Positions 6,110 through 6,837 of a DNA stretch of 64,000 bases are shown here, piece after piece. Position numbers and translations under genes: made by a program. The stretch comes from an uncultured Gammaproteobacteria bacterium (GTDB taxonomy: Bacteria; Pseudomonadota; Gammaproteobacteria; UBA9214). The stretch is from assembly GCA_942491995.1 (NCBI GenBank), contig CALOCX010000003.1, positions 139,710 through 203,709 of the forward strand, written 5' to 3'. Under the pieces are notes generated by a model. The model ran no database searches, was not told the origin of the DNA, and saw nothing but the letters and a program-made list of their open reading frames with translations. Position 1 is the stretch's first letter; each line of letters opens with the position of its first letter.

Positions 6110-6140
6110 ATCTTGCCCCCCGGCAGATGTGGCTGAAACG

Positions 6141-6210
6141 ACTGTCAGTTTTGTCATGTTTTGACAGTATAGCGGATATTACTACTGACAATACTGACAG
6201 CTGTTGACAT
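6141..6210 (+). promoter_or_regulatory. Upstream activator sequence 1: palindromic ACTGTCAG-N13-TGACAGT plus extra TGACA half-sites, ~147 bp upstream of sigma-54 promoter 1
   Basis: ACTGTCAG 6141-6148 and TGACAGT 6162-6168; CTGACA 6185-6190, CTGACAG 6194-6200, TTGACAT 6204-6210. Same motif at the same spacing upstream of promoter 2. Confidence 0.6.
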
Positions 6211-6287
6211 GGGCCAACTGTATCATGGTTTATTACAAATTCTATATGTATTTGTTTTTATTATTTTTATAAATAATGACACGGGAC

Positions 6288-6302
6288 TGGCATTGTTCTT
6301 GC
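6288..6302 (+). promoter_or_regulatory. Sigma-54 (RpoN) promoter 1: TGGCAT-N5-TTGC
   Basis: TGGCATTGTTCTTGC with GG at 6289-6290 and GC at 6301-6302, 12-nt spacing as in the TGGCACG-N4-TTGCW consensus. 79 bp upstream of ATG 6367, beside a sigma-54 activator gene. Confidence 0.7.
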
Positions 6303-6366
6303 TGCCTAACAGGTTGCTACAAGACCAATGATGATAATGTCAATACAGTCATAAGGGGATTCCACA

Positions 6367-6462
6367 ATGCTAACCCTGATCAAAGATCTGCTTATCGCTA
6401 TTTTCCTTGTCGGCATTACCCTGGTATGGGTTGCCAGCACACACGCGACGACGCTGTATTAA
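6367..6462 (+). CDS. 31-aa hydrophobic leader-like peptide; paralogous remnant of the cytochrome signal peptide
   Basis: MLTLIKDLLIAIFLVGITLVWVASTHATTLY, with RBS AAGGGGA. N-terminus and upstream RBS context (GGGGATTCCACAATG vs GGGGGATCCACAATG) parallel the cytochrome start at 6838 (MQTFLKDLLLGVFLVCLTLAF). Confidence 0.35.
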   Translation: MLTLIKDLLIAIFLVGITLVWVASTHATTLY

Positions 6463-6533
6463 CAGGCATCAAATTCCGCGGGTAGTCACATCAAGTGGTG
6501 TCAGTCTGTCGTGACGGCACCCCTCTTCCCCAG

Positions 6534-6563
6534 GGCGGCAGCTTTCAGGCCGTCCTTTTTTTT
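6534..6563 (+). terminator. Rho-independent terminator after the leader ORF
   Basis: GGCGGC-AGCTTTCAG-GCCGTC stem-loop (one G.U pair) followed by 8 T at 6556-6563. Confidence 0.6.
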
Positions 6564-6620
6564 ACTGGCCCGAAAAGCACCTATGAGAGGTGTTGGACTA
6601 TCCGGCCCGTGGCTGAGACT

Positions 6621-6670
6621 ACTGTCAGTCTTGTCAGTGTATGACAGGTATGCGGGACTGCTTATGACAA
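6621..6670 (+). promoter_or_regulatory. Upstream activator sequence 2 (duplicate of UAS1), ~147 bp upstream of sigma-54 promoter 2
   Basis: ACTGTCAG 6621-6628, TTGTCAG, TGACAG 6642-6647 and TGACAA 6665-6670. Context GGCTGAGACTACTGTCAGTCTTGTCA matches GGCTGAAACGACTGTCAGTTTTGTCA of unit 1. Confidence 0.6.
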
Positions 6671-6766
6671 TAGTGGCAGTTTTTAACATAGGCCAACACC
6701 AGCACTTCTTGTTCATTTCTGCATAACTACATGTTTTTTATAATCATCAAACAAGCATTACAGGAA

Positions 6767-6781
6767 TGGCATTGTTCTTGC
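6767..6781 (+). promoter_or_regulatory. Sigma-54 promoter 2: TGGCAT-N5-TTGC, driving the multiheme cytochrome gene
   Basis: TGGCATTGTTCTTGC, identical 15-mer to promoter 1. 71 bp upstream of ATG 6838. Confidence 0.7.
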
Positions 6782-6837
6782 CTTGTATCTAGGCAAAAAC
6801 CATTTCTATATCAAAAAAGTCGTACGGGGGATCCACA

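Follow-up and report, generated by a model that had tools for sequence, protein, structure and literature searches.

In Escherichia coli, the activator gene pspF is divergent from pspA, and enhancer sites in the shared intergenic region allow the activator both to switch on its target and to repress its own promoter. In Vibrio, the gene of the response regulator LuxO is divergent from qrr1, which encodes the non-coding, Hfq-dependent RNA Qrr1. The locus analysed here, in a 64-kb stretch of DNA from an uncultured gammaproteobacterium (hereafter the window), resembles both. Two homologous transcription units were found in tandem between the gene of a sigma-54 activator and the ccm (cytochrome c maturation) operon. 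As in pspF-pspA, the activator is divergent from its putative sigma-54 target and the enhancer lies in the shared intergenic region; PspF, however, has no sensor domain and uses integration host factor (IHF), whereas the activator of the window has a PAS domain rich in Cys and His and two targets in tandem, and the search for an IHF consensus was negative. As in luxO-qrr1, a short terminated sigma-54 transcript is predicted divergent from the activator gene, with shared sites that would allow feedback, but here the transcript contains an open reading frame (ORF) with a protein-type substitution pattern and had no Rfam match. With NtrC/NifA-type systems, the locus shares GG-N10-GC promoter elements, dyad half-sites 80-150 bp upstream and an AAA+ activator with a Fis-type helix-turn-helix (HTH) domain; the TGTCA/TGACA half-site, the six-site layout and a sensor domain that matched no named equivalog set it apart. 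The promoter and enhancer architecture is textbook, and the literature searched contained no description of ccm, or of this cytochrome family, as being under sigma-54 control.

The interpretation favoured here, with moderate confidence, is that unit 1 (6129-6609) is the resident copy, shortened by a deletion and since held under constraint, and that unit 2 (6610 to ~9995) is an inserted full-length copy. Both units exhibit the same order of a TGTCA/TGACA half-site array, an AT-rich spacer, a TGGCAT-N5-TTGC promoter, a ribosome-binding site and a start codon. A direct-repeat search gave a unit spacing of 471-480 bp, and the units were 61% identical over 350 nt. The initial annotation, made from the letters of the DNA, had described a duplicated enhancer plus promoter module. 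The repeat is real, but that description was too small, as the repeat is a whole transcription unit and the homology extends past 6837. Overall, this is a real, tidy regulatory locus of known kind, with an ordinary promoter type and an unusual history. Its unusual features are a constrained mini-gene consisting of a signal peptide only, and the adjoining slot for cassettes.

Sigma-54 promoters were called where the GG and GC dinucleotides lay 10 bp apart within TGGCAC-N5-TTGCW, facing the downstream gene. Two were assigned on the forward strand, P1 at 6288-6302 and P2 at 6767-6781, both with the -24/-12 sequence TGGCATTGTTCTTGC. They were the two best matches to the sigma-54 consensus in the window, with no mismatch to TGGCAY-N5-TTGCW at 6288-6303 and one at 6767-6782. 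That both units carry an identical 15-mer, as annotated initially, holds for the window but is partly coincidence, the orthologues of each unit differing at spacer positions. P1 orthologues read TGGCATCGTTCTTGC, TGGCATTGTACTTGC and TGGCAGTGCTCTTGC, with the variation outside GG-N10-GC, and the promoters of unit-2 orthologues differed at spacer position 8 only, which was G, T or C. Across the ten promoter modules compared, differences were seen at spacer positions or position 6 only, and GG/GC was invariant. The distance from the start of the 15-mer to the ATG was 79 bp in unit 1 and 71 bp in unit 2 (ATG at 6367 and 6838), and the ribosome-binding strings were GGGGATTCCACAATG and GGGGGATCCACAATG, as noted before. 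A metagenome-wide scan for TGGCATNGTTCTTGC returned chance matches; among the matches listed, none had a KDLL-type ORF downstream and four had three upstream half-sites.

The palindromic site reported for both units, ACTGTCAG-N13-TGACAG, was recovered at 6141-6167 and 6621-6647, starting 147 bp upstream of the 15-mer in unit 1 and 146 bp in unit 2. These were its only exact matches in the window. With up to two mismatches allowed, four hits were obtained in 64 kb, namely the same two sites on both strands, compared to 0.57 expected. Each palindrome proved to be part of an array of six half-sites. In the first upstream activating sequence (UAS1, 6141-6209), half-sites at 6143, 6152, 6162, 6186, 6195 and 6205 (spacings 9, 10, 24, 9 and 10) are arranged as TGTCA, TGTCA, TGACA, a 24-bp gap and three further copies of TGACA, with a phasing of 9-10 bp. 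UAS1 lies 32-100 bp upstream of the activator start codon. UAS2 (6621-6688) has half-sites at 6623, 6632, 6642 and 6665, TGGCA at 6674 and a degenerate sixth site ~10 bp further on. No other 100-bp bins of the window were as rich in half-sites as the two that hold the arrays, with 5 and 4 where the mean is 0.28. Among related loci and contigs (L numbers), the UAS1 array was conserved in the unit-1 orthologues of L001, L002, L006, L007, L010, L013 and L146, and sites 1-4 of UAS2 were retained in unit 2 of L001 and L010. The arrays are therefore repeated, dyad-symmetric sites 80-200 bp upstream of a promoter and conserved in orthologues, as expected of upstream activating sequences. The selection on both copies that had been proposed was also supported, in that orthologues kept the GG/GC elements and four to six half-sites while the spacers drifted, as such selection predicts.

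The divergent gene at 4721-6109 (reverse strand) encodes a sigma-54 enhancer-binding protein of 462 aa, in agreement with the initial annotation. Its Pfam matches were PF00158 (Sigma54_activat, E 3.7e-62), PF25601, PF02954 and PAS_4, covering Sigma54_activat, AAA_lid_14, HTH_8 (E 3.1e-13) and PAS domains. The protein consists of an N-terminal Cys/His-rich PAS domain, the AAA+ sigma-54 interaction domain and the Fis-type HTH. The AAA+ domain carries the loop GAFTGS (family-wide variant G[AS][FY]TGS) and, together with the C-terminal HTH, gives the domain set of a bacterial enhancer-binding protein. No named NCBIfam equivalog (NifA, NorR, NtrC, TyrR and others) reached its cut-off; the best score was for NifA, 317 against a cut-off of 529 bits, and covered the AAA+ core only. 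The relatives were uncultured, with 69-98% identity among the best 120 of 8000 proteins with E <= 1e-30, and the matches in named genomes were Gammaproteobacteria metagenome-assembled genomes. In 19 sequences, down to 69% identity, residues C59, H64, C70, H71, C77, H79, C91, H93, H95 and C103 of the PAS domain were invariant. These five Cys and five His, with the pattern CYKISHNNDAPCHESGEDCPH...C.H.H...C over residues 59-103, suggest a metal, Fe-S or redox sensor. A sequence search of the PDB with the PAS domain gave generic PAS matches alone (E at least 0.03).

Between the half-sites of UAS1, a candidate -10 box of the activator gene, TATACT, was found at 6166-6171 on the reverse strand. Every unit-1 orthologue retains it, L006, L007 and L013 among them, and unit 2 has the degenerate CATACC. 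No convincing -35 box was seen beside TATACT on the activator strand, and the sigma-70 promoter of the activator gene was not placed. From this position, UAS1 may repress or tune the activator's own promoter (autoregulation).

Based on this anatomy, a mechanism can be proposed in which a redox or metal signal sensed by the Cys/His-rich PAS domain would switch on both units. The activator would bind the TGTCA/TGACA arrays 80-150 bp upstream of each TGGCAT-N5-TTGC promoter, and the AT-rich DNA between array and promoter would let the bound oligomer reach the sigma-54 polymerase. Both arrays would be bound and both promoters driven by the one activator, amounting to co-regulation. Unit 1 would yield a ~250-nt transcript that stops at a strong terminator and codes for a membrane peptide of 31 residues resembling a signal peptide, and unit 2 would drive a secreted pentahaem cytochrome. 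With UAS1 spanning the activator's own upstream region, feedback on activator expression is probable. The arrays are the likely recognition element, and the two units the likely first targets, for a widespread uncharacterised family of Cys/His-rich PAS activators in uncultured sediment Gammaproteobacteria, which would link the family to extracytoplasmic multihaem cytochromes and the ccm locus.

In some relatives, clusters of TGTCA/TGACAG were also found to precede further sigma-54 promoters across the activator (L002 8134-8321, L006 9480-9631 and L007 9111-9240). The genes behind these promoters in L002, L007 and L006 encode secreted proteins, of which the L006 one exceeds 1300 aa and combines PKD, cadherin and cytochrome domains. 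Membership of the same regulon is probable. Since such clusters stand before cytochrome and secreted-protein genes, the regulon looks like one of extracytoplasmic redox proteins.

To the right of unit 1, strains with flanks of 96-99% identity either carry, lack or have exchanged the ~3.4-kb block made up of unit 2 and its cytochrome. Contigs with an identical unit-1 ORF (ORF31) fell into three classes, those with no cassette (L145 and L154, in which ORF31 is followed directly by ccmA), those with a type-B cassette (L146, L147 and L151) and those of the window's type. L145, L146 and L154 came from one sample, in which the no-cassette and type-B states co-occur. Between the window and L144, the flanks were 95-100% identical and the cassette 50-95%. 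For L010, the 5' flank and everything from ~9450 on were 95-100% identical and the cassette body 57-82%. When the protein was compared with those of the type-B cassettes (L010 and L146), the signal peptide and the last ~75 aa were near-identical and the middle was 55-66% identical. Judged by these alignments, the cytochrome cassettes appear as hypervariable mosaics. The site beside unit 1 would be a slot in which near-identical strains gain and lose full-length cytochrome cassettes.

Both ends of the block were traced to the ccmA promoter. The left junction is at 6609|6610 and reads CCGGCCCG|TGGCTGAG. Here, the orphaned left half of the ccmA promoter (GGTGTTGGACTATCCGGCCCG, 6589-6609, forward strand), with its -35 box and spacer, ends and unit 2 begins with TGGCTGAGAC... 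The homology of the cassette-less L002 and L154 to the window stops at 6607-6612. The right junction lies within ~9990-10010, in homologous DNA. In L002, L007 and L013, GGTGTTGGACTATCCGGCCCG runs directly into the -10 box GGGTAGTATGATG, and the uninterrupted ccmA promoter, GGTGTTGGGCTATCCGGCCCGGGGTAGTATGATG, was found in cassette-free strains and in the outgroups L007 and L013. The working ccmA promoter of the window is of sigma-70 type and occupies 9972-10001 on the forward strand (-35 TTGGGC at 9972-9977, -10 TATGAT at 9996-10001); its -35 box is the diverged second copy that came with unit 2, and its -10 box is the resident one. Copy A of the promoter lacks the -10 side, therefore recombination between the copies cannot recreate an intact ccmA promoter. 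As the intact promoter cannot be regenerated in this way, the cassette-free state is taken as ancestral and the tandem state as an insertion. Unit 2 and its cytochrome were more likely acquired as a diverged copy than duplicated in situ long ago. The initial annotation had taken the duplication to be old and in place; with the unit-2 block variable among strains, the ~60% identity more likely reflects a diverged homologue that was acquired.

The history would then have started from a layout of activator, promoter with cytochrome and terminator, and ccm, as the comparisons indicate. An internal deletion of the mature cytochrome coding region would have left the mini-gene, which most relatives have since kept under constraint at the level of the peptide. 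Some strains would have received a full-length, diverged copy of the unit in the spacer of the ccmA promoter, giving the tandem arrangement, and the inserted cassette would now differ or be missing among otherwise near-identical strains. The left joint shares 5 nt, CCGGC, with sequence upstream of UAS1, and the insertion may have been joined by homology at its right end and at this microhomology at its left. Homology-facilitated illegitimate recombination during DNA uptake is a known process in which one end is homologous and the other is joined at microhomology, and the locus matches it with the right end in the homologous ccmA promoter and the left end at CCGGC. The likeness is drawn from the junction sequences alone, and slipped tandem duplication gives the same joint.

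An ancient tandem duplication in situ, after which copy 1 suffered a deletion and copy 2 was lost repeatedly, is an unlikely alternative to this insertion. The ~60% identity of the units is compatible with age, the CCGGC microhomology also fits a slipped duplication, and the L007 small ORF resembles the signal peptide of unit 2 more than it does unit 1. It is opposed by the cassette-free strains and all outgroups, which keep an uninterrupted ccmA promoter that homologous recombination of copies A and B could not restore, and by the segregation of presence and absence among strains with identical ORF31 in one sample.

The gene carried by unit 2 (6838-9799, forward strand) encodes a pentahaem c-type cytochrome with a signal peptide, five CXXCH motifs, PKD and cadherin-like domains and a Cys-rich MopE-like tail. 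The initial annotation had called it a large multiheme cytochrome. It is a five-haem protein of ~920-990 aa, but the reading frame is broken in this assembly. The frame changes at least six times within 6838-9799 (frames 1, 2, 0, 1, 2, 0, 2, as coordinate mod 3), with extra short compensated shifts near 7040-7066 and 7312-7375, and the five CXXCH motifs lie across shifted frames. About nine of the indels were specific to the window when compared to both L001 and L144. The cytochromes of L001, L010, L144 and L019 were also broken, at other places, the breaks of L019 being at homopolymers, and relatives assembled from long reads have their breaks at sites that differ. At the same position, the Illumina contigs L146 and L147 contained an intact cytochrome of 922 aa, 97-99% identical to the repaired L010 gene, and the intact L146 protein carries five CXXCH. 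Compared to L001, the amino-acid identity of the window protein was 77-93% over most of its length, which matches or exceeds the nucleotide identity of 84%. The frame breaks probably arose as consensus errors where a long-read assembly met a locus heterogeneous among strains, and suggest that reading frames at strain-variable sites can be scrambled in metagenomes assembled from long reads. In the ORF list of the 64-kb window no other long gene was visibly split, those genes not having been compared with homologues. All 267 database homologues of the cytochrome were <=407 aa, which can be explained by such breaks and by contig ends inside the variable gene. Programmed frameshifting was also considered for these short homologues and rejected; the shift sites differ between relatives, those of L019 are at homopolymers, and the Illumina protein is intact at 922 aa.

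The 31-aa hydrophobic ORF described initially for unit 1 is present (ORF31, MLTLIKDLLIAIFLVGITLVWVASTHATTLY, 6367-6462, forward strand, ribosome-binding site GGGGA at 6353-6357), with the correction that it is homologous to the cytochrome signal peptide, MQTFLKDLLLGVFLVCLTLAFTTFVKAADV, with which it aligns. Downstream of its stop, the block 6463-6609, comprising the 3' untranslated sequence CGGGTAGT, the hairpin, the terminator and GGTGTTGGACTATCCGGCCCG, aligns with 9800-9995 following the cytochrome stop. The 3' end of unit 1 (6492-6563, forward strand) has an upstream hairpin followed by the intrinsic terminator T1, with its stem at 6533-6555 and the reported T8 run at 6556-6563 after a 7-8 bp GC stem. 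Stem and loop of T1 were nearly invariant across seven loci. The hairpin and intrinsic terminator T2 at the 3' end of unit 2 (9873-9933, forward strand) are homologous to 6492-6563. Being homologous to both ends of unit 2, unit 1 reads as unit 2 without ~2.9 kb of mature cytochrome coding sequence, and ORF31 as its signal-peptide-only remnant. The equivalent ORF of L006 has 61 aa, and its tail resembles the cytochrome C-terminus by eye, with no statistic attached; this fits an internal deletion, as a weak observation.

The order of activator, half-site array, -24/-12 promoter, ribosome-binding site, small ORF, hairpin, terminator, ccmA promoter and ccmABC was shared by L002-L005 (98% activator identity), L013 (85%), L006 (82%) and L007/L008 (80%). 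By this conservation, unit 1 is taken as the resident, widely conserved copy. In L022 (78%) and L020 (74%), the array, a perfect -24/-12 promoter, the terminator and the ccmA promoter were retained, and the small ORF was gone. In these two loci, terminated transcripts of ~130 nt (L022 5480-6003) and ~360 nt (L020 5100-6003) are predicted on the reverse strand from the sigma-54 promoter beside the activator, without a conserved ORF.

ORF31, which was called on at least 11 contigs, exhibited the substitution pattern of a coding sequence. The pairwise ratio of non-synonymous to synonymous rates (dN/dS) was 0.08-0.24 among close orthologues. Between the window and L001 there were nine synonymous and three non-synonymous differences (Fisher p=3.5e-4). 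Across eight DNA haplotypes, the variable sites at codon positions 1/2/3 numbered 3/2/14 (binomial p=4e-4), with synonymous change only in the first 16 codons. The synonymous distance (dS) between the window and L013 was ~1, so that synonymous sites are near saturation. The unit-1 transcript gave noise alone and no meaningful score against Rfam at permissive thresholds, and its whole-transcript fold was no better than that of shuffled sequences (z -0.67). An exhaustive HMMER search of 1.84 billion representatives returned the peptide's own cluster and one spurious hit, with no relatives outside the clade. Because of the third-position bias, the lack of a special fold and the lack of an Rfam match, ORF31 is treated as a translated small membrane peptide, and a pure relic and a pure RNA gene as less likely. 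A further step, that the signal sequence of the deleted cytochrome was exapted as a small membrane peptide, ORF31, and kept under the control of the activator, is suggested only tentatively. Either way, a gene reduced to promoter, signal peptide and terminator appears to be still under coding constraint. Were the exaptation real, it would show how a larger gene, reduced to its two ends, gave rise to a regulated gene for a microprotein, and the peptide might modulate the export or maturation of cytochromes with the same leader, or feed back on regulation.

It is doubtful that unit 1 is a functionless relic that has not yet decayed, with only the half-site array maintained as the control region of an autoregulating activator gene. 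In favour of a relic are the homology of unit 1 to both ends of the cytochrome unit, the loss of the small ORF in L022 and L020, and the lack of relatives of the peptide outside the clade among the 1.84 billion representatives; a peptide of which cleavage would release four residues also has no obvious role. Against it are the biased codon positions (3/2/14) and low dN/dS (0.08-0.24) of ORF31, and a ribosome-binding site, start codon and -24/-12 elements that are intact at 80-85% activator identity with synonymous sites near saturation, and the -24/-12 promoter and terminator persist even without the ORF.

A sigma-54-dependent regulatory RNA like qrr1 beside luxO, with the ORF incidental, is improbable. 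A short terminated transcript lies divergent beside the activator in every relative, in L022 and L020 it occurs at the same position without the ORF, and the 3' hairpin and U-tail are strongly conserved. As a copy of the 5' end of the cytochrome mRNA, such an RNA could be a decoy for a leader-binding factor. Against this, the substitution pattern indicates protein constraint rather than RNA constraint, the z of -0.67 and the Rfam result give no sign of the conserved structure or known family by which a sigma-54 small regulatory RNA would be recognised, and the transcribed sequences of L020 and L022 did not look similar to unit 1 in a comparison made by eye only.

The least probable proposal, that P1 boosts ccm by read-through of T1, raising haem attachment together with cytochrome synthesis and leaving the small ORF as a leader, draws on the order of activator, sigma-54 promoter and ccm, conserved down to 74% activator identity, and on the physiological sense of co-inducing the maturation machinery, but it is opposed by a strong terminator (7-8 bp GC stem and T7-T8) and a separate sigma-70-type promoter in all lineages, by the lack of any predicted alternative anti-terminator pairing and by the 3.4 kb and second terminator that separate P1 from ccmA in the window. 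Every lineage examined has a terminator and, behind it, a conserved -35/-10 pair of sigma-70 type. The pair TTGGGC/TATGAT was retained in L002, L007, L013 and L022, and L020 has TTGGGT/TATCAT at the same position. Nor does unit 1 resemble a leader-peptide attenuator, as the ORF31 stop lies 70 nt before the terminator stem and no alternative pairing was seen in the predicted fold. T1 would insulate ccm, which would have its own promoter.

Several points weigh against the favoured interpretation of a constrained resident unit 1 and an inserted unit 2 under one activator. The third half-site of unit 2 in L146 is TGGCA, so the exact palindrome is apparently not strictly required. With up to one mismatch, the IHF consensus WATCAANNNNTTR had no match in 6210-6287 or 6690-6766, the AT-rich spacers. 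Regulation by the activator was deduced from adjacency and motif conservation, and the direction of the event, insertion as opposed to ancient duplication and loss, from one junction argument, with the right junction placed only to ~9990-10010. Since the small ORF is gone in L022 and L020, the peptide appears dispensable in some lineages. Finally, the window cytochrome may really be a recent pseudogene.

Two further repetitive features were seen in the neighbourhood. In the ccmA leader (10050-10173), a 34-nt inverted repeat flanks 56 nt, forming an element of ~125 bp that resembles a miniature inverted-repeat transposable element. The window, L010 and L146 have this element; L001 and L002 lack it. 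At 4002-4195, between two response-regulator genes, a 48-bp tandem array of 4.1 copies (67% matches) was found, the copy number of which is strain-dependent; it is 95 bp shorter in L144, and in L001 a longer unit occurs in several additional copies.

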